Part shown: positions 1 through 18,423 of the stretch, in pieces
Layout of the letters: every line of letters starts with the position of its first letter
How positions within the stretch are numbered: position 1 is the stretch's first letter
The notes under the pieces: generated by a model
What the model was told of the DNA's origin: nothing
The model's input: the letters and a program-made list of their open reading frames with translations, nothing else
Databases searched by the model: none
Virus record (IMG/VR): IMGVR_UViG_2879770953_000006
Strand: one strand, 5' to 3'
Source of the DNA: a virus
Taxonomy: Duplodnaviria; Heunggongvirae; Uroviricota; Caudoviricetes
DNA: 18,423 nt
Program-made: the position numbers and the translations under genes

Positions 1-302
1 GAGCCGCAGAGGGGAAGTTGCGTCCATTTTGAGGGAAACGGAGCAAAAAACCGCCATTCATACCCTGAATCAATCAGAGCCATCCAGTTTAATCGTCGGT
101 TCCGTTCATATGGAGCAAAAGTGGTGTTGAAGAAACATCCGTTTTGTGGTGTTTTTTTAATCTTTTTGGGGTTTTAATTCCTATCGATGAACTGGTGGCG
201 AACTGTGCAGGGTTGGCGTAACCGGGTACGGAAACCGGCGAGCCTTTCGGCTCCCCCACACAGCCCGCCATAAATCGCGAATGTGACTGTGCAAACGATA
301 TG

Positions 303-323
303 AAAAAAGACGCGGGCGCGTCT
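303..323 (-). terminator. Rho-independent terminator (tR'-like) downstream of segment-A Q
   Basis: On the minus strand a GC-rich hairpin (AGACGCG / CGCGTCT, 308-323) is followed by a T6 run (rc of A6 at 303-308). Lies about 90 nt downstream of the Q stop. Confidence 0.55.
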
Positions 324-385
324 CATATCGCTCCGTAAACATCCGGGACGCCAATCCCGACGCCAGATTTTGCTGGCGCGTGAGG

Positions 386-415
386 AATATAGCCCCGGAT
401 AACAAATTGAGTCAA
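386..415 (-). promoter_or_regulatory. Putative late promoter (PR'-like) overlapping the Q stop codon
   Basis: Minus strand reads TTGACT (rc of 410-415), 18-nt spacer, TATATT (rc of 386-391). Position immediately after Q mirrors lambda PR'; the short distance to the terminator at 303-323 suggests a small 6S-like RNA. Confidence 0.4.
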
Positions 416-3188: not shown

Positions 3189-3344
3189 TTACTCCTCAGG
3201 TTCGTAAGCTGTGAAGACAGCGACCTCCGTCTGGCCGGTTCGGATTCGTACCTCGCAGAGGTCTTTCCTCGTTACCAGTGCCGTCACTATGACGGTTAAA
3301 CAGATGACGATCAGGGCGATTAACATCGCCTTTTGCTGCTTCAT
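3189..3344 (-). CDS. hok: Hok-family type I toxin (51 aa), copy 1
   Basis: Translation MKQQKAMLIALIVICLTVIVTALVTRKDLCEVRIRTGQTEVAVFTAYEPEE matches HokD/RelF. ATG at 3342-3344 with SD AAGGAG. CDS is 100% identical in nucleotides to the copy at 16525-16680. Confidence 0.9.
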   Translation of the reverse strand: MKQQKAMLIALIVICLTVIVTALVTRKDLCEVRIRTGQTEVAVFTAYEPEE

Positions 3345-3401
3345 AGCCTGCTTCTCCTTGCCTTTCGGCACGTAAGAGGCTAACCTACATTTGTGAGACA
3401 T
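3189..3401 (-). CDS. mok: Mok-like in-frame upstream extension of hok (70 aa ORF)
   Basis: An ATG at 3399-3401 opens the same frame 19 codons upstream of hok (MSHKCRLASYVPKGKEKQA-MKQQ...), as in chromosomal mok/hok pairs. Absent from the second hok copy. Confidence 0.45.
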   Translation of the reverse strand: MSHKCRLASYVPKGKEKQAMKQQKAMLIALIVICLTVIVTALVTRKDLCEVRIRTGQTEVAVFTAYEPEE

Positions 3402-3682
3402 AGATTGGGCCTCAGATTAATGTTAAGCGTCTTGCAGGACGCGTAATGTTAACTGGGGCTTTTCTCTGTCTGCCTTACAGTGGCATGCCCGAGGCAGACA
3501 GCCTCAAGCACCCGCAGCAATCTTACCGATACCGATAAGAAAACGCTATTTTTTATTGCCAGCACCTTCTATCCAGGCTAATTTATCTGCGTCAGAACGG
3601 CGCAATGCGCTCGCCTGAGATACGTTTACTTGCCATGGTAACAACAGGTAACGGCAATTGCTGTTTCTGTTTTGTTTCCTTC

Positions 3683-7848: not shown

Positions 7849-7939
7849 TAGACTGGCCCCCTGAATCTCCAGACAACCAGTATCACTTATTTAAGTGATA
7901 GTCTTAATACTAGTTTTTAGACTAGTCATTGGAGAACAG

Positions 7940-8305
7940 ATGATTGATGTCTTAGGGCCGGAGAAACGCAGACGGCGTACCACACAGGAAAAGATCGCAA
8001 TTGTTCAGCAGAGCTTTGAACCGGGGATGACGGTCTCCCTCGTTGCCCGGCAACATGGTGTAGCAGCCAGCCAGTTATTTCTCTGGCGTAAGCAATACCA
8101 GGAAGGAAGTCTTACTGCTGTGGCCGCCGGAGAACAGGTTGTTCCTGCCTCTGAACTTGCTGCCGCCATGAAGCAGATTAAAGAACTCCAGCGCCTGCTC
8201 GGCAAGAAAACGATGGAAAATGAACTCCTCAAAGAAGCCGTTGAATATGGACGGGCAAAAAAGTGGATAGCGCACGCGCCCTTATTGCCCGGGGATGGGG
8301 AGTAA
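7940..8305 (+). CDS. insC: IS2 InsC (OrfA), 121 aa
   Basis: Translation [56 protein letters not shown]... matches IS2 InsC; ATG at 7940 with SD GGAGAA. Confidence 0.95.
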
Positions 8306-9168
8306 GCTTAGTCAGCCGTTGTCTCCGGGTGTCGCGTGCGCAGTTGCACGTCATTCTCAGACGAACCGATGACTGGATGGATGGCCGCCGCAGTCGTCAC
8401 ACTGATGATACGGATGTGCTTCTCCGTATACACCATGTTATCGGAGAGCTGCCCACGTATGGTTATCGTCGGGTATGGGCGCTGCTTCGCAGACAGGCAG
8501 AACTTGATGGTATGCCTGCGATCAATGCCAAACGTGTTTACCGGATCATGCGCCAGAATGCGCTGTTGCTTGAGCGAAAACCTGCTGTACCGCCATCGAA
8601 ACGGGCACATACAGGCAGAGTGGCCGTGAAAGAAAGCAATCAGCGATGGTGCTCTGACGGGTTCGAGTTCTGCTGTGATAACGGAGAGAGACTGCGTGTC
8701 ACGTTCGCGCTGGACTGCTGTGATCGTGAGGCACTGCACTGGGCGGTGACTACCGGCGGCTTCAACAGTGAAACAGTACAGGACGTCATGCTGGGAGCGG
8801 TGGAACGCCGCTTCGGCAACGATCTTCCGTCGTCTCCAGTGGAGTGGCTGACGGATAATGGTTCATGCTACCGGGCTAATGAAACACGCCAGTTCGCCCG
8901 GATGTTGGGACTTGAACCGAAGAACACGGCGGTGCGGAGTCCGGAGAGTAACGGAATAGCAGAGAGCTTCGTGAAAACGATAAAGCGTGACTACATCAGT
9001 ATCATGCCCAAACCAGACGGGTTAACGGCAGCAAAGAACCTTGCAGAGGCGTTCGAGCATTATAACGAATGGCATCCGCATAGTGCGCTGGGTTATCGCT
9101 CGCCACGGGAATATCTGCGGCAGCGGGCTTGTAATGGGTTAAGTGATAACAGATGTCTGGAAATATAG
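8263..9168 (+). CDS. insD: IS2 InsD (OrfB transposase), 301 aa
   Basis: Translation ...[50 protein letters not shown]... shows the DDE-type IS3-family transposase signature. Confidence 0.95.
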
Positions 9169-9592: not shown

Positions 9593-9695
9593 AATTGCCC
9601 CGTATGATGCTACCCGGTTGCTTAGAATAAGTGAGGTAGCCTGAGTTTAACGGACGCTCCTTCCTGAAATAGAATGGCATCAGAAGGAGCTAATA

Positions 9696-9998
9696 ATGAG
9701 CAGAAAAACCCAACGTTACTCTAAAGAGTTCAAAGCCGAAGCTGTCAGAACGGTTCTTGAAAATCAACTTTCGATCAGTGAAGGCGCTTCCCGATTATCT
9801 CTTCCTGAAGGCACTTTAGGACAATGGGTTACCGCCGCCAGAAAAGGGCTCGGTACTCCTGGTTCCCGCACGGTGGCTGAACTGGAATCTGAAATTCTGC
9901 AACTGCGTAAGGCGTTAAATGAAGCTCGCCTTGAGCGAGATATATTAAAAAAAGCAACAGCGTATTTTGCACAGGAGTCGCTGAAAAATACGCGTTAA
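9696..9998 (+). CDS. IS600-like OrfA (100 aa)
   Basis: Translation MSRKTQRYSKEFKAEAVRTVLENQLSISEGASRLSLPEGTLGQWV...; HTH plus leucine-zipper arrangement typical of IS3-family OrfA. Confidence 0.9.
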   Translation: MSRKTQRYSKEFKAEAVRTVLENQLSISEGASRLSLPEGTLGQWVTAARKGLGTPGSRTVAELESEILQLRKALNEARLERDILKKATAYFAQESLKNTR

Positions 9999-10033
9999 TC
10001 GAACAATGGCGACAACAATTTCCCATTGAAGCG

Positions 10034-10852
10034 ATGTGTCAGGTATTTGGTGTATCCAGGAGCGGTTATTACAACTGGGTACAGCATGAACCCTCAGACA
10101 GAAAACAAAGTGATGAGCGGCTAAAACTGGAGATTAAGGTGGCACATATCCGCACTCGCGAAACATATGGAACCCGGCGGCTCCAGACGGAGCTGGCAGA
10201 GAATGGCATCATCGTTGGTCGTGACCGACTGGCACGTCTTCGTAAGGAGCTGAGGCTACGCTGTAAGCAGAAACGCAAGTTCAGAGCGACTACGAACCCG
10301 AACCACAATCTGCCAGTTGCGCCAAATCTGCTGAACCAGACGTTCGCTCCTACAGCACCAAATCAGGTCTGGGTGGCGGACCTGACGTATGTTGCCACAC
10401 AGGAGGGATGGTTGTACCTCGCTGGCATCAAAGATGTTTATACGTGCGAAATTGTCGGCTACGCCATGGGAGAGCGCATGACAAAAGAGCTGACAGGTAA
10501 AGCCCTGTTTATGGCGCTCAGGAGCCAGCGCCCACCTGCCGGGCTAATCCACCACTCTGATCGAGGTTCACAGTACTGCGCATACGATTACCGGGTCATA
10601 CAGGAGCAGTTTGGTCTGAAAACATCAATGTCGCGTAAAGGTAACTGTTACGACAACGCTCCGATGGAAAGCTTCTGGGGAACGCTGAAAAATGAGAGCC
10701 TGAGCCACTATCGTTTTAATAACCGGGATGAAGCCATCTCAGTAATACGGGAATACATTGAGATTTTCTACAATCGTCAGCGTCGTCACTCTCGTCTGGG
10801 GAATATCTCCCCGGCAGCCTTCAGGGAAAAATATCATCAGATGGCTGCTTAA
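10034..10852 (+). CDS. IS600-like OrfB transposase frame (272 aa; normally an OrfAB frameshift fusion)
   Basis: DDE transposase motifs (...WVADLTYV...HHSDRGSQY...NAPMESFWGTLK...). Confidence 0.9.
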   Translation: MCQVFGVSRSGYYNWVQHEPSDRKQSDERLKLEIKVAHIRTRETYGTRRLQTELAENGIIVGRDRLARLRKELRLRCKQKRKFRATTNPNHNLPVAPNLLNQTFAPTAPNQVWVADLTYVATQEGWLYLAGIKDVYTCEIVGYAMGERMTKELTGKALFMALRSQRPPAGLIHHSDRGSQYCAYDYRVIQEQFGLKTSMSRKGNCYDNAPMESFWGTLKNESLSHYRFNNRDEAISVIREYIEIFYNRQRRHSRLGNISPAAFREKYHQMAA

Positions 10853-10895
10853 AAAAAGAACAAATGGTAGTGTCCGCTATTGCCAGTACACCTCA

Positions 10896-11056
10896 GTCAG
10901 ATATGTCAGCAGCCCAAACAGCAGACTCCCCAGCACGCCTATTGCCGCCCACTGAGACGGGGAAAACCTGTCCAGCAACTGCAGGAACCAGTAGCCCGTT
11001 CCCACCGCTGACGTGGTGTATGACACACCTGTTGTGATTTTTTCCATCTGGTCCAT
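10896..11056 (-). pseudogene. S21-type pinholin, 3'-truncated by IS600
   Basis: Translation [54 protein letters not shown] closely resembles phage 21 holin S21 over 53 native codons. The reading frame then runs 5 codons into the IS600 end (EVYWQ, stop). Dual-start motif M-D-Q-M present; SD GGGAGA. Confidence 0.75.
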
Positions 11057-11363
11057 ACCCCGTCTCCCGTTATCCGGAAGCTGACAACAATAAAAAAGCC
11101 ACCAGTTAACTACTGATGGCTCTGATAACTCATGCAAGCGTCTCAGACGACCCACTGACACTACCGGTGAGTTTAACGATACCTTCCATTTGACTGGCTC
11201 ACTTTTTATGATGATGCCGGTGCATTTATCTCCAGCACCAGACTTTCTATCTCAACGCCATACGTTGCATTTTTGGTAATATCCGTCAGCGTCAGTGCAT
11301 TTAGTCCCACTGCCAGACTGTCTTTTATGGCCTGGAATGCCGGGCCAGTACGATGACGTAGTA

Positions 11364-12147: not shown

Positions 12148-12594
12148 GGAGTTTACTCACATCTGACAAAATCAATATAAACAGCCCCTCCGGAGAGGGG
12201 CTGGAGAGTGGCGCTATGTGCCATTGCATGGTGCCGGGTGCCTCCCGGTGAATTCAGTACCAGCACCTGAATCCGCGATTATCCCATATACCTACTCGCT
12301 GATTGCCCCTCCGCACAGGGGGATTCACCATGCCAGTTTCTTTTAACAAACTCCCCGCAAACCAGACAACAGTCAACCGCCTGAATTGTGAAGTATTTAA
12401 AAATTTCTCCCGCTAACTGATACCCGGCTAACAGTCTGGCGTTTTCTTTTTCAGCAACGGGAAAGCAACAACCACCACACCCGCCACCAGCACACCGTCA
12501 GCCGGCACTGACATTATCCGGCTGCTGCAATGCCATTCACAAAAACAGTAAGCAATCACTTTTTACCGTAACAGGTGATAATCCAGATATGTAT

Positions 12595-13058: not shown

Positions 13059-13135
13059 TGGCGCGCTGTACTGGATTCGAACCAGTGACCGATTGCTTAG
13101 AAGGCAATTGCTCTGTCCGGCTGAGCTAACAACGC
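13059..13135 (-). tRNA. tRNA-Arg (anticodon UCU), phage-encoded
   Basis: rc reads GCGTTGTTAGCTCAGCCGGACAGAGCAATTGCCTTCTAAGCAATCGGTCACTGGTTCGAATCCAGTACAGCGCGCCA. Cloverleaf is consistent: 7-bp acceptor stem with one G-U pair, T-loop GGTTCGAATCC, anticodon loop CTTCTAA, 3' CCA. Confidence 0.85.
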
Positions 13136-13236
13136 TGAATACCGATAATGGACCGCCATCGGGGACCCGCCCCCCGCACCAACAACCCTGTTATCGTGTC
13201 GTCTGCTCTTCCTGATAAGCTAATGGCGGTTTGTGA

Positions 13237-13312
13237 TGGTGGCCCTTGCTGGATTTGAACCAGCGACCTGGCGATTATGAGTCGCTCGCTCTCACCACTG
13301 AGCTAAAGGGCC
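13237..13312 (-). tRNA. tRNA-Ile2 (anticodon CAU, ileX-like; formally could be a Met tRNA)
   Basis: rc reads GGCCCTTTAGCTCAGTGGTGAGAGCGAGCGACTCATAATCGCCAGGTCGCTGGTTCAAATCCAGCAAGGGCCACCA, which closely resembles E. coli ileX. Confidence 0.8.
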
Positions 13313-14660: not shown

Positions 14661-15710
14661 TTACCCAAGCACGCCAGTTGCAAAGGCGTGATCAAGAAAA
14701 CGAAAAATTAAATCAACCTGAGAACCATGCTTTTCTTCGAACGCCAGAGGATCCGCATGAAGCTCGTTGTGATGCTCCCGACACAGCGGTAGCGTGAAAA
14801 TATCGTGAGATTTTGTCCCCATTCCGCCCTGACCATGACCAATCAGGTGATGGGGATCGTCGGCTGGCTTACCACAACACGCACACGGCTGTGTCTTCAC
14901 CCAGCGTTTGTATTTCTCGTTAACCCAACTGCGACGTTTAGGTCGTTTCATGAAAGATTCCGGAGACTCAGGATCAACGGCAATGCTGACCACCGTCTTT
15001 TCCTGTTGTGGGTTCTGTTGCTGGTGGGCGTGAGGCAGCGGCGCAAGATTTTTTGTGCGCTGTTTCAGTATGCTGGTGGCGGTCTGCTCTCCCGGTACGA
15101 TGTCGCTTTCACGGTACATTGAGCGGATTTTTTCCGCACGCAACCCCAGCGAACGACGTAATACCGCTTCCGGTAGCGCGTCCGCCACCTGATTGCGGAC
15201 CGCCCACCAGGATAATTCAGCCAGAGATAATTCACGCTCCTGCGTACCGCTTATTGCGTGACCGATGACGTCAATCATCCATGCTGACAGGTTTTGATGA
15301 GCAAGTTGCTCGAGTGATTCGGATGTCTGGTCACGCAACTGGTTGTCGCAGTGCCAGCACAACACCATTGCGCCGGTACCATAACGGTGAATGACGGTTT
15401 CGCTGTGATGATAATCGCCGTGTGGCCACTGGCAGGATTTAATATGGCGCAACAGCCAGTCAGACAATGCACCAGCACCACCAGCAGCACGAATCACCTG
15501 TGCGTTACTGAAAAACGGCAGCAATGTTTTGTCTTCCACCAGCGGCTGGCGAACGGCAGGAACGACCCCGGACGGCAGATTACGCATGCTTTTCGGTTCC
15601 GGCTCCACCAGTAACCGGGTATTGTGGAATACCGGCATGGATTCACGACCGGGCTTAAGGACCACCAGCCCGAGTTCCGGAACCAGAACAGGTCGAAGTA
15701 ATACCCGCAC
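14661..15710 (-). CDS. YdfU-like phage protein (DUF968-type by recollection; 349 aa) with C-terminal HNH-like Cys/His motif
   Basis: GTG start with SD GGAGG 5 nt upstream. C-terminus CACCGKPADDPHHLIGHGQGGMGTKSHDIFTLPLCREHHNELH. Same length and synteny as Qin-prophage YdfU as I recall it. Confidence 0.65.
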   Translation of the reverse strand: MRVLLRPVLVPELGLVVLKPGRESMPVFHNTRLLVEPEPKSMRNLPSGVVPAVRQPLVEDKTLLPFFSNAQVIRAAGGAGALSDWLLRHIKSCQWPHGDYHHSETVIHRYGTGAMVLCWHCDNQLRDQTSESLEQLAHQNLSAWMIDVIGHAISGTQERELSLAELSWWAVRNQVADALPEAVLRRSLGLRAEKIRSMYRESDIVPGEQTATSILKQRTKNLAPLPHAHQQQNPQQEKTVVSIAVDPESPESFMKRPKRRSWVNEKYKRWVKTQPCACCGKPADDPHHLIGHGQGGMGTKSHDIFTLPLCREHHNELHADPLAFEEKHGSQVDLIFRFLDHAFATGVLG

Positions 15711-15711
15711 G

Positions 15712-15990
15712 TTACCTCCAGATCCGTTGCTGGAATGTGCGGGACGGACGCGGTGGCTGTTCGGAGTAAGGGAGCCTGACGGAGATTATCCAGTGACGGT
15801 AGTCGAGGCTAAGGGCTTTTTTAACCTCGCATCCGCGCCTGCGGTAACACTGAATGAGCCATTCGGCCTGTTCTTCAGTGCATGAGGGATGCTGGTACCA
15901 GTCTGACTTAAATGCGTGAGAATACCGCTCGTGCGTGTGGGCAAGAACGGTCGAATTATCATGATTGTAATATTTTGCGTTGCGTGCCAT
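15712..15990 (-). CDS. Hypothetical protein (92 aa)
   Basis: ATG with SD GGAG; its stop is 1 nt from the downstream start and its 3' end supplies that gene's SD. Confidence 0.5.
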   Translation of the reverse strand: MARNAKYYNHDNSTVLAHTHERYSHAFKSDWYQHPSCTEEQAEWLIQCYRRRGCEVKKALSLDYRHWIISVRLPYSEQPPRPSRTFQQRIWR

Positions 15991-16056: not shown

Positions 16057-16307
16057 TTATTCTTCTGAAAAAGCAGAAAAGCCAGCTTTTATTCCGGTCT
16101 CTTTCAATGCCTGTAATGAAGTGACAAACTCACCGTCGCGCAAGATAAATCCGTCCGTCACTCGGGCATCCACAAAATTAATTAACGCAGCCCCATTTTT
16201 TGCAAACACACAATGCGGTAATGACTAACAATATTTCCATTTTCAACGCACACAGCATAGAGGCCATCTTCACAAAAAATTTTACGCAGTTCTTCGATGT
16301 TCATCAT
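16057..16307 (-). pseudogene. 83-codon small ORF (rem-like by size and synteny) interrupted by a -1 frame break in an A6 tract
   Basis: ATGATG start at 16307 with SD GGAAGGA. Reading MMNIEELRKIFCEDGLYAVCVENGNIVSHYRIVCLQK stops after 41 codons. The -1 frame continues NGAALINFVDARVTDGFILRDGEFVTSLQALKETGIKAGFSAFSEE to the stop at 16057. One extra A in the tract (T6 at 16196-16201 on plus) restores a single 83-codon ORF. Confidence 0.5.
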
Positions 16308-16435
16308 CAGAATCCTTCCAGATAAGTAGCACTCCCCTGTTCGGGGTCCATCCCTTTTATCCCTGCGCGCTACTTAAGTATTTTTGATTCTATTCCGGCA
16401 CCATCCAGAACTTCAAATGCGTTGAAAATAAAAAC

Positions 16436-16456
16436 AAAAACCCGCCGAAGCGGGTT
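16436..16456 (-). terminator. Rho-independent terminator at 3' end of relBE-hokD transcript
   Basis: Same CCCGC-TTCG-GCGGG hairpin plus T-run as at 3100-3122. Confidence 0.7.
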
Positions 16457-16524: not shown

Positions 16525-16680
16525 TTACTCCTCAGGTTCGTAAGCTGTGAAGACAGCGACCTCCGTCTGGCCGGTTCGGATTCGTACCTCGCAGAGGTCT
16601 TTCCTCGTTACCAGTGCCGTCACTATGACGGTTAAACAGATGACGATCAGGGCGATTAACATCGCCTTTTGCTGCTTCAT
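16525..16680 (-). CDS. hokD: HokD (RelF) type I toxin, 51 aa
   Basis: Identical CDS to 3189-3344, SD AGGAGAAG, located 71 nt downstream of relE as in the relBEF operon. Under 60 aa, so absent from the ORF track. Confidence 0.9.
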   Translation of the reverse strand: MKQQKAMLIALIVICLTVIVTALVTRKDLCEVRIRTGQTEVAVFTAYEPEE

Positions 16681-16751: not shown

Positions 16752-17039
16752 TCAGAGAATGCGTTTGACCGCCTCGCTATATACTTCCGAGCGTTCTCTT
16801 TTCCCAACAGAAATCACGAAAACGACAACTTTCTCGTCTATAACCTGGTATACAAGGCGATAGCCTGAAGACCGGAGCTTAATCTTGTAACAATCAGGCA
16901 TACCACGGAGCTTGTTTGCTTCAATCCGGGGTGACTCAAGTACTTCAACCAGCTTCTTTTTCAACTGTTCACGTACCGTCGAGCCCAGCTTTCGCCATTC
17001 CTTTAGTGCCCGCTCGTCAAAATCCAGAAAATACGCCAT
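16752..17039 (-). CDS. relE: RelE mRNA interferase toxin (95 aa)
   Basis: Translation MAYFLDFDERALKEWRKLGSTVREQLKKKLVEVLESPRIEANKLRGMPDCYKIKLRSSGYRLVYQVIDEKVVVFVISVGKRERSEVYSEAVKRIL is essentially identical to E. coli RelE as I recall it. Confidence 0.95.
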   Translation of the reverse strand: MAYFLDFDERALKEWRKLGSTVREQLKKKLVEVLESPRIEANKLRGMPDCYKIKLRSSGYRLVYQVIDEKVVVFVISVGKRERSEVYSEAVKRIL

Positions 17040-17278
17040 CAGAGTTCATCCAGCGTCACACGTACTGGCTTAGGATTACGAAGCCGTTCTTTCACTATCT
17101 CCACAAGTTCAGCATCTTCATCACTCAGGAGTGTCTGTTTGAACGGCAAGCGTTCATTGTCAGCGATATACTCGAGCATGAGACGAAGCGCTTCAGAAGG
17201 AGTTACACCCATTTTTTCAAGCGCGGCGTAAGAACGCGCTTTAAGTTCATCGTCAATACGCAGGTTAATGCTACCCAT
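17039..17278 (-). CDS. relB: RelB antitoxin (79 aa)
   Basis: Translation MGSINLRIDDELKARSYAALEKMGVTPSEALRLMLEYIADNERLPFKQTLLSDEDAELVEIVKERLRNPKPVRVTLDEL; ATGA overlap with relE. Confidence 0.95.
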   Translation of the reverse strand: MGSINLRIDDELKARSYAALEKMGVTPSEALRLMLEYIADNERLPFKQTLLSDEDAELVEIVKERLRNPKPVRVTLDEL

Positions 17279-17561: not shown

Positions 17562-18423
17562 TGAGGTGTACTGGCAATAGCGGACACTACCATTTGTTCT
17601 TTTTTTAAGCAGCCATCTGATGATATTTTTCCCTGAAGGCTGCCGGGGAGATATTCCCCAGACGAGAGTGACGACGCTGACGATTGTAGAAAATCTCAAT
17701 GTATTCCCGTATTACTGAGATGGCTTCATCCCGGTTATTAAAACGATAGTGGCTCAGGCTCTCATTTTTCAGCGTTCCCCAGAAGCTTTCCATCGGAGCG
17801 TTGTCGTAACAGTTACCTTTACGCGACATTGATGTTTTCAGACCAAACTGCTCCTGTATGACCCGGTAATCGTATGCGCAGTACTGTGAACCTCGATCAG
17901 AGTGGTGGATTAGCCCGGCAGGTGGGCGCTGGCTCCTGAGCGCCATAAACAGGGCTTTACCTGTCAGCTCTTTTGCCATACGCTCTCCCATGGCGTAGCC
18001 GACAATTTCGCACGTATAAACATCTTTGATGCCAGCGAGGTACAACCATCCCTCCTGTGTGGCAACATACGTCAGGTCCGCCACCCAGACCTGATTTGGT
18101 GCTGTAGGAGCGAACGTCTGGTTCAGCAGATTTGGCGCAACTGGCAGATTGTGGTTCGGGTTCGTAGTCGCTCTGAACTTGCGTTTCTGCTTACAGCGTA
18201 GCCTCTGCTCCTTACGAAGACGTGCCAGTCGGTCACGACCAACGATGATGCCATTCTCTGCCAGCTCCGTCTGGAGCCGCCGGGTTCCATATGTTTCGCG
18301 AGTGCGGATATGTGCCACCTTAATCTCCAGTTTTAGCCGCTCATCACTTTGTTTTCTGTCTGAGGGTTCATGCTGTACCCAGTTGTAATAACCGCTCCTG
18401 GATACACCAAATACCTGACACAT
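17562..18423 (-). mobile_element. IS600-like element, second copy, inverted; partial (runs off the window)
   Basis: rc of 17562-17604 matches the right end of copy 1 (…GTACACCTCA). OrfB is complete; OrfA and the left end lie beyond the window. Confidence 0.85.
17605..18423 (-). CDS. IS600-like OrfB transposase (272 aa)
   Basis: Differs from copy-1 OrfB at 2 residues (L/Q in RLRKE(L/Q)RLR and T/A in GERM(T/A)KE). Confidence 0.9.
   Translation of the reverse strand: MCQVFGVSRSGYYNWVQHEPSDRKQSDERLKLEIKVAHIRTRETYGTRRLQTELAENGIIVGRDRLARLRKEQRLRCKQKRKFRATTNPNHNLPVAPNLLNQTFAPTAPNQVWVADLTYVATQEGWLYLAGIKDVYTCEIVGYAMGERMAKELTGKALFMALRSQRPPAGLIHHSDRGSQYCAYDYRVIQEQFGLKTSMSRKGNCYDNAPMESFWGTLKNESLSHYRFNNRDEAISVIREYIEIFYNRQRRHSRLGNISPAAFREKYHQMAA

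Follow-up and report, generated by a model that had tools for sequence, protein, structure and literature searches.

An 18,423-nt stretch of prophage DNA (here called the window) carries a rem gene whose reading frame was very probably broken when an A7 run lost one base, which would make the gene an ordinary inherited pseudogene of the homopolymer-deletion type. Both the gene and the kind of event were already known. The original prediction, made from the letters of the DNA, had described an 83-codon frame interrupted in an A6 tract, had likened it in size and position to rem of Qin-like prophages, and had offered a homopolymer indel pseudogene, a sequencing error, or a low-level slippage site as explanations. 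The first of these was borne out by orthologues that carry A7 and by intact relatives of rem, and the identity, size, and position proposed for rem were upheld by matches to Rem proteins and by gene order.

Structure of the broken gene

Direct rechecking of the sequence placed the coding strand of the broken ORF on the minus strand and confirmed the two frames of 41 and 46 codons, their coordinates, the sequence quoted for them, and the A6 joint between them. The rem pseudogene occupies positions 16057 to 16307 (minus strand) and is 251 nt long, compared with 252 nt and 83 codons in the intact allele. Its A6 run (16196-16201, minus) lies within CAAAAAATGGGG and marks the site of the 1-nt deletion; in intact orthologues an A7 run encodes Gln36-Lys37-Asn38. 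In the zero frame, which opens at ATG 16307-16305, the run is read in the context TTG CAA AAA ATG GGG, and the frame closes at TAA 16182-16184. The translated remnant (16182-16307, minus) is thus 41 codons long and consists of Rem residues 1 to 37 followed by an aberrant tail, MGLR. The remaining 46 codons and a stop, corresponding to Rem residues 38 to 83, form an out-of-frame remnant (16057-16197, minus) in the -1 frame, which is open from inside the 41-codon ORF to TAA 16057-16059. The two frames overlap at A6, and the addition of one A produces a single 83-codon ORF with one start preceded by a Shine-Dalgarno sequence, as predicted: GGAAGGA (16313-16319, minus) stands 5 nt upstream of the ATG. 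The downstream piece can also be delimited as a 50-aa ORF that starts at a GTG at 16209, inside the upstream ORF; since this GTG has no Shine-Dalgarno sequence, independent initiation there is unlikely.

Upstream, a terminator-like hairpin with a T run (16439-16456, minus) follows hokD, and between it and rem lies a promoter-like TTGAAG-18-TAGAAT (16387-16416, minus), recognized only as a consensus match. By analogy with Gifsy antirepressors we looked for a LexA box and found none in the 223 nt upstream of rem. A small leader hairpin (16334-16346, minus), 14 nt upstream of the rem Shine-Dalgarno sequence, varies in sequence by haplotype while keeping its pairing. It reads CCCC-GAACA-GGGG in S. 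flexneri and the window but CCCTT-A-AAGGG on the A7 haplotype of E. coli, and it may be a conserved structural element of the rem leader. The gene also contains a second homopolymer, T6 (16274-16279, minus) in codons 10 to 12 (AAA ATT TTT TGT), which is intact in every allele examined.

Identity of the restored protein

The restored 83-aa protein is identical to WP_000980987.1, annotated as "protein Rem," at 82 of 83 residues and to K-12 Rem (b1561) at 78 of 83, agreement that places the restored ORF far beyond chance and extends the similarity to the characterized K-12 protein over its full length. The fused translation, which the original prediction would have abandoned had it lacked homologues, therefore has a family to belong to, and the orthologues carry one gene rather than two separate conserved small ones. 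Precomputed annotations tag every homologue, and the exact 41-aa product itself, as PF27490:Rem; a local Pfam-A scan of the 83-, 41-, and 50-aa sequences returned no family, the Pfam versions behind the two evidently being different. Position is conserved as well: rem follows hokD and precedes the 92-aa ORF and ydfU (DUF968), within a nin-like region of lambdoid type. The window copy lacks an uninterrupted frame of about 83 codons, and because the frame breaks after codon 37 it is filed as a Rem-family pseudogene.

K-12 Rem is an antirepressor of DicA (Ragunathan et al., J Bacteriol 2023, PMC10448788), and its ectopic expression raised dicBp transcription 165-fold and caused filamentation through DicB and DicF (PMC10448788). 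Functional temperate phages, mEp460_ev081 among them, also carry an intact rem. Compared with rem of the K-12 Qin prophage, the window holds the same gene, with the same start and stop and the same hokD-rem-ydfU position, but it is one base short and truncated after residue 37, and the window lacks the dicA, dicC, and dicBF target module. The allele encoding WP_000980987.1, found in E. coli 55989, CFSAN064035, and many other strains, is closer still: its coding DNA differs only in run length and at one base, it is A7 and intact, and the same genes follow it. Its surroundings differ on the other side, where it has another small upstream hairpin and a left flank of SMEK/methyltransferase genes in place of relBE.

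The frameshift removes Rem residues 38 to 83, and with them the sequence that alignment shows to be best conserved in the family, TDGFILR..EFVTSL..LKE..KAGFSAF. In an AlphaFold model of an intact homologue with 96% identity, which is of low confidence (pLDDT 62, pTM 0.47) and mostly beta, the break would fall in a loop between predicted strands 3 and 4. The 41-aa truncated product is probably inactive.

A prophage reshaped by insertion sequences

The gene order relB-relE-hokD-rem-orf92-ydfU(DUF968)-rusA-Q is that of Qin and related prophages. On the minus strand, hokD (16525-16680), relB (17039-17278), and relE (16752-17039) each encode proteins 100% identical to their K-12 counterparts, and the 92-aa ORF (15712-15990, minus) and the DUF968 gene ydfU (14661-15710, minus) are intact downstream of rem. 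Exact matches to the YdfU and 92-aa proteins of the window carry source labels of Shigella or S. flexneri. When the whole window was searched against complete E. coli genomes, coverage peaked at 44%, so it does not belong to that set, and S. flexneri is very probably its source.

On the far side of relBE, an IS600-type element (17562-18423, minus) cuts ydfV at residue 85, extends past the end of the window, and stands where the prophage would have its flxA-dicC-dicA-dicF-dicB side. Searches of the window with tblastn, blastn, and Rfam found no flxA, dicC, dicA, dicB, or dicF. With the only known Rem target module missing from the locus, loss of rem was plausibly neutral. A consideration on the other side is that a DicA-like target could exist elsewhere in the source genome, the searches having covered the window.

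The window is heavily decayed, with four insertion sequences in 18.4 kb: IS1 at about 2000 to 2700, an IS2-type element at 7895-9168, and IS600 at about 9632 to 10895 and at 17562-18423. The two IS600 copies are in opposite orientation and 99.7% identical over their shared 862 nt, and a P21-type holin ORF (10877-11161, minus) abuts one IS600 copy. The IS2-type element interrupts genes of the replication region (DUF1376, DnaC-like), and related contigs have a host MFS transporter gene beyond the IS. The overall picture is of two fragments of prophage that IS elements have brought together.

A second hokD (3192-3344, minus), also 100% identical to K-12 HokD at the protein level, is accompanied by a sok RNA (RF01794) at 3339-3513; Rfam gave no sok match at the relBE-linked hokD (16525-16680). 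A small ORF after the second hokD (2701-2952, minus; probable product MEKIKKLFSS..., about 70 aa) has its 3' end cut by the terminal repeat of IS1. It occupies the place that rem has after the other hokD and was considered as another rem copy and rejected, as BLASTP produced no alignment and hhalign a probability of 0.25%. Rfam identified a P1/P7-type immunity module at 191-392 (minus), comprising a C4 antisense RNA, isrK, and c4 a1/b1 targets, upstream of a DUF1133/Q-like gene. At 12173-12362 and 13059-13312 (both minus), Rfam and ARAGORN placed the sRNA STnc100 and, on the downstream side of the Q antiterminator, genes for tRNA-Arg(tct) and tRNA-Met(cat).

Orthologues carry A7

If A6 arose by deletion, close relatives should carry A7 and an intact gene, and they do. 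The near-identical E. coli loci, 97.5% identical over 401 nt, are A7 and have an annotated, uninterrupted rem, as had been predicted for the orthologues. When complete-genome E. coli records were searched with an 83-nt A6 probe, 2277 matched and none did so at ≥99% identity; the corresponding 84-nt A7 probe had exact matches in 198. The roughly 1900 remaining records, at 90 to 95% identity, presumably carry the K-12-type allele, in which these codons read TTG CGA AAG AAT GGG with no homopolymer. All intact relatives have one ORF of 82 to 87 codons. Shigella falls within E. coli in the GTDB taxonomy.

Alignment of other Rem family members revealed a four-residue insertion at the position of the run. 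Together with the missing homopolymer in K-12, insertions at this site argue that the A run is an incidental codon choice for Gln-Lys-Asn in a variable loop, and to judge from these alleles it is not a conserved signal. No expansion to A8 was present among cluster members, whose 43-aa proteins were contig-end partials or the result of other frameshifts on the K-12-type allele.

Inheritance of A6 and the order of events in Shigella

The A6 allele recurs with flanks 100% or 99.8% identical to the window in at least six assemblies (L003, L005, L006, L010, L011, and L012), a count that is a lower bound and whose six loci come from different assemblies and projects. The exact 41-aa product is recorded in at least 45 contigs and 88 collection blocks. 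Because the same allele appears in six different assemblies and in so many collection blocks, A6 is heritable.

A sister lineage preserves the state before the deletion. The complete S. flexneri chromosome CP026803.1 (L015) shares the locus, with IS600, a truncated ydfV, relBE, and hokD on the left flank of rem and no difference in upstream haplotype. Its rem is also dead, but it was killed there by IS911, inserted after codon 65 (L015 4197-5440), rather than by a deletion in the run, and it keeps both A7 and Ile71. The ancestor therefore carried an intact A7 gene, A6 is derived, and rem was inactivated twice independently. A further A7 allele, in Shigella sp. FC2833 (L019, 1-322), is cut by an IS near codon 27. 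Seen across Shigella, rem has been lost in three ways: A7 to A6, IS911 after codon 65, and an IS near codon 27. This triple loss could have come from neutral decay driven by IS elements or from selection acting against the antirepressor.

A substitution nested within the A6 carriers extends the sequence of events. Codon 71 (16096-16098, minus) is ACC (Thr) in the window, L003, and L010, the change being at 16097, and ATC (Ile) in L005, L006, and L011, which are also A6. As the A7 alleles and the older A6 alleles carry Ile, the change to Thr came after the frameshift, and the order that the alleles indicate is A7/Ile71, then A6/Ile71, then A6/Thr71. The aligned homologues all have I, A, or V at residue 71, and the restored Thr71 protein was absent from the approximately 15 billion sequences searched. 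A threonine here is what relaxed constraint after inactivation would predict, an argument from drift that rests on a single substitution.

A few draft assemblies (L004 and L007 to L009) likewise show A6, in their case on the E. coli haplotype. The A6 runs of L007 and L008 are likely read errors, since other genes (DUF968, antiterminator) are also split there. In L004 (E. coli, GG749217.1, 2889-3842), the A6 copy of rem extends over just the first 252 nt of the region, and a complete A7 rem follows about 270 nt after the truncated copy; the hokD-rem region of this assembly is a partial tandem duplication or a recombination scar.

Recoding, error, and switching as alternatives

A more elaborate explanation is that recoding is maintained at A6, with a -1 ribosomal shift or the insertion of an A by RNA polymerase setting a low dose of full-length Rem, so that the deletion would be a "savior indel." Several features make the idea worth weighing. 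The tetramer A-AAA is in register at the run, and a back-slip of P-site tRNA-Lys would read AAT, restoring exactly the wild-type sequence. Slippage by a single tRNA at IS1-type sites occurs at 0.3 to 1% (PMC1851650), and E. coli suppresses 1-nt deletions, without any programmed signal, at approximately 1 to 10% (PMC10861913), so comparable events are measurable. Shigella itself uses transcriptional slippage in mxiE, spa13, spa33, and mxiA (PMC5009743), and attenuation of an antirepressor that is toxic when overexpressed (PMC10448788) is conceivable.

The site nevertheless has little of the architecture of a programmed shift. Its zero frame, CAA AAA ATG, does not form a slippery heptamer of the type X XXY YYZ, and A-AAA is the only tetramer in register, the A-site tRNA-Met being unable to re-pair. 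No Shine-Dalgarno-like stimulator lies 10 to 14 nt upstream of the run, and the 20 nt preceding it contain nothing resembling GGAGG. Folding of the 86 nt downstream was no stronger than that of shuffled sequences (z = -0.74), and the sole downstream hairpin begins about 33 nt after the run, outside the 5 to 9 nt expected of a stimulator. The site is also unconserved: no complete E. coli genome has A6, whereas 198 such records have exact A7, and K-12-type alleles lack the tract altogether. Like IS1 insAB' (A AAA AAC) and dnaX (A AAA AAG), rem has an A-rich run on which tRNA-Lys can slip by -1; unlike them, it has no second slippery codon (the next is ATG), no Shine-Dalgarno-like or stem-loop stimulator, and no conservation, and in rem the unshifted form is the mutant one. 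Transcriptional slippage fares no better. Bacterial examples have been described on runs of 9 A or T (review, PMC5009743), well above the six found here. The Shigella slippage genes come from the same genus and likewise have an A/T homopolymer inside coding sequence, but the rem run is only 6 and its intact relatives need no slippage.

The history of the locus points the same way, in that the sister lineage destroyed rem with IS911, a nonconservative change arose after the frameshift at a position that is hydrophobic throughout the family, and the target module of Rem is missing from the locus. With no heptamer, stimulator, or conservation, and with the IS911 knockout in the sister lineage, programmed recoding is not supported, and we regard maintained recoding as very unlikely. 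The same low standing applies to the specific proposal that A6 is attenuated rather than dead, with approximately 0.3 to 1% full-length Rem kept as a safe low dose of a toxic antirepressor. A weaker variant, in which the three independent Shigella knockouts reflect selection for loss of the antirepressor and not neutral decay, could still hold. The slippage site proposed in the original prediction thus does not stand as a recoding site, while generic, unprogrammed -1 slippage at a low level is possible. It is plausible that an unprogrammed tRNA-Lys slip on A-AAA yields traces of full-length protein, which would not be a designed feature, and by analogy with the rates cited above some full-length Rem(T71) may be made.

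A sequencing or assembly error, in which the true genome would be A7 and the gene intact, is less probable again. Homopolymers are the classic site of indel errors for 454, Ion Torrent, and Nanopore data, and the E. coli-haplotype A6 of L007 and L008, beside other split genes, suggests error-prone data in those two assemblies. Against this, the Shigella-type A6 recurs with its near-identical flanks in the six assemblies, its product is recorded in the 88 collection blocks, and the change from Ile71 to Thr71 is nested among A6 carriers as in a real inherited allele. The recurrence of an identical allele across many independent assemblies excludes the error that the original prediction had listed.

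Smaller still is the chance that the run is a phase-variable switch, toggling at high frequency between A7 (ON) and A6 (OFF). The observation in its favor is that A6 occurs on at least two haplotypes, one typical of Shigella and one of E. coli (L004 and L007 to L009), so the run has been contracted or misread more than once. Against a switch, the complete E. coli records hold 198 exact A7 matches and no exact A6 match, no A8 product appears among cluster members, and within Shigella the state of the tract follows clonal structure with its nested substitutions. There is likewise no sign of reversion, the restored Thr71 protein being unrecorded in the sequences searched. Frequent, reversible change of tract length within lineages, the mark of a contingency locus, was not seen. 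A 7-nt run is also short for such a locus.

That the 41- and 50-aa ORFs are two genuine small genes is barely credible, even though each appears in the ORF list and gene calling has at times reported the pair, because comparison with the single 82- to 87-codon ORF of every intact relative refutes it, the 50-aa ORF would have to start at its GTG inside the upstream ORF, and the exact 50-aa product is absent from the protein collection.

Decay of rem

The pseudogene reading is accordingly the one that we favor. One A was lost from the A7 run, most likely by replication slippage, and A6 is fixed in a Shigella lineage of the S. flexneri type, in the rem gene of a Qin-type lambdoid prophage. The native Shine-Dalgarno sequence and ATG would now direct synthesis of Rem 1-37, MGLR, and a stop, at the cost of the conserved C-terminal 46 residues. 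Loss of the gene was probably tolerated or neutral, its target module of dicA, dicC, and dicBF having gone from the prophage remnant.

The proper label for this locus is "rem, pseudogene (frameshift in A-run)," in place of two hypothetical small proteins or a recoding candidate. Its wider value is as a small example of stepwise prophage decay in which the order of events could be resolved, with at least three lesions in rem alongside the IS-mediated loss of dicA-dicBF.
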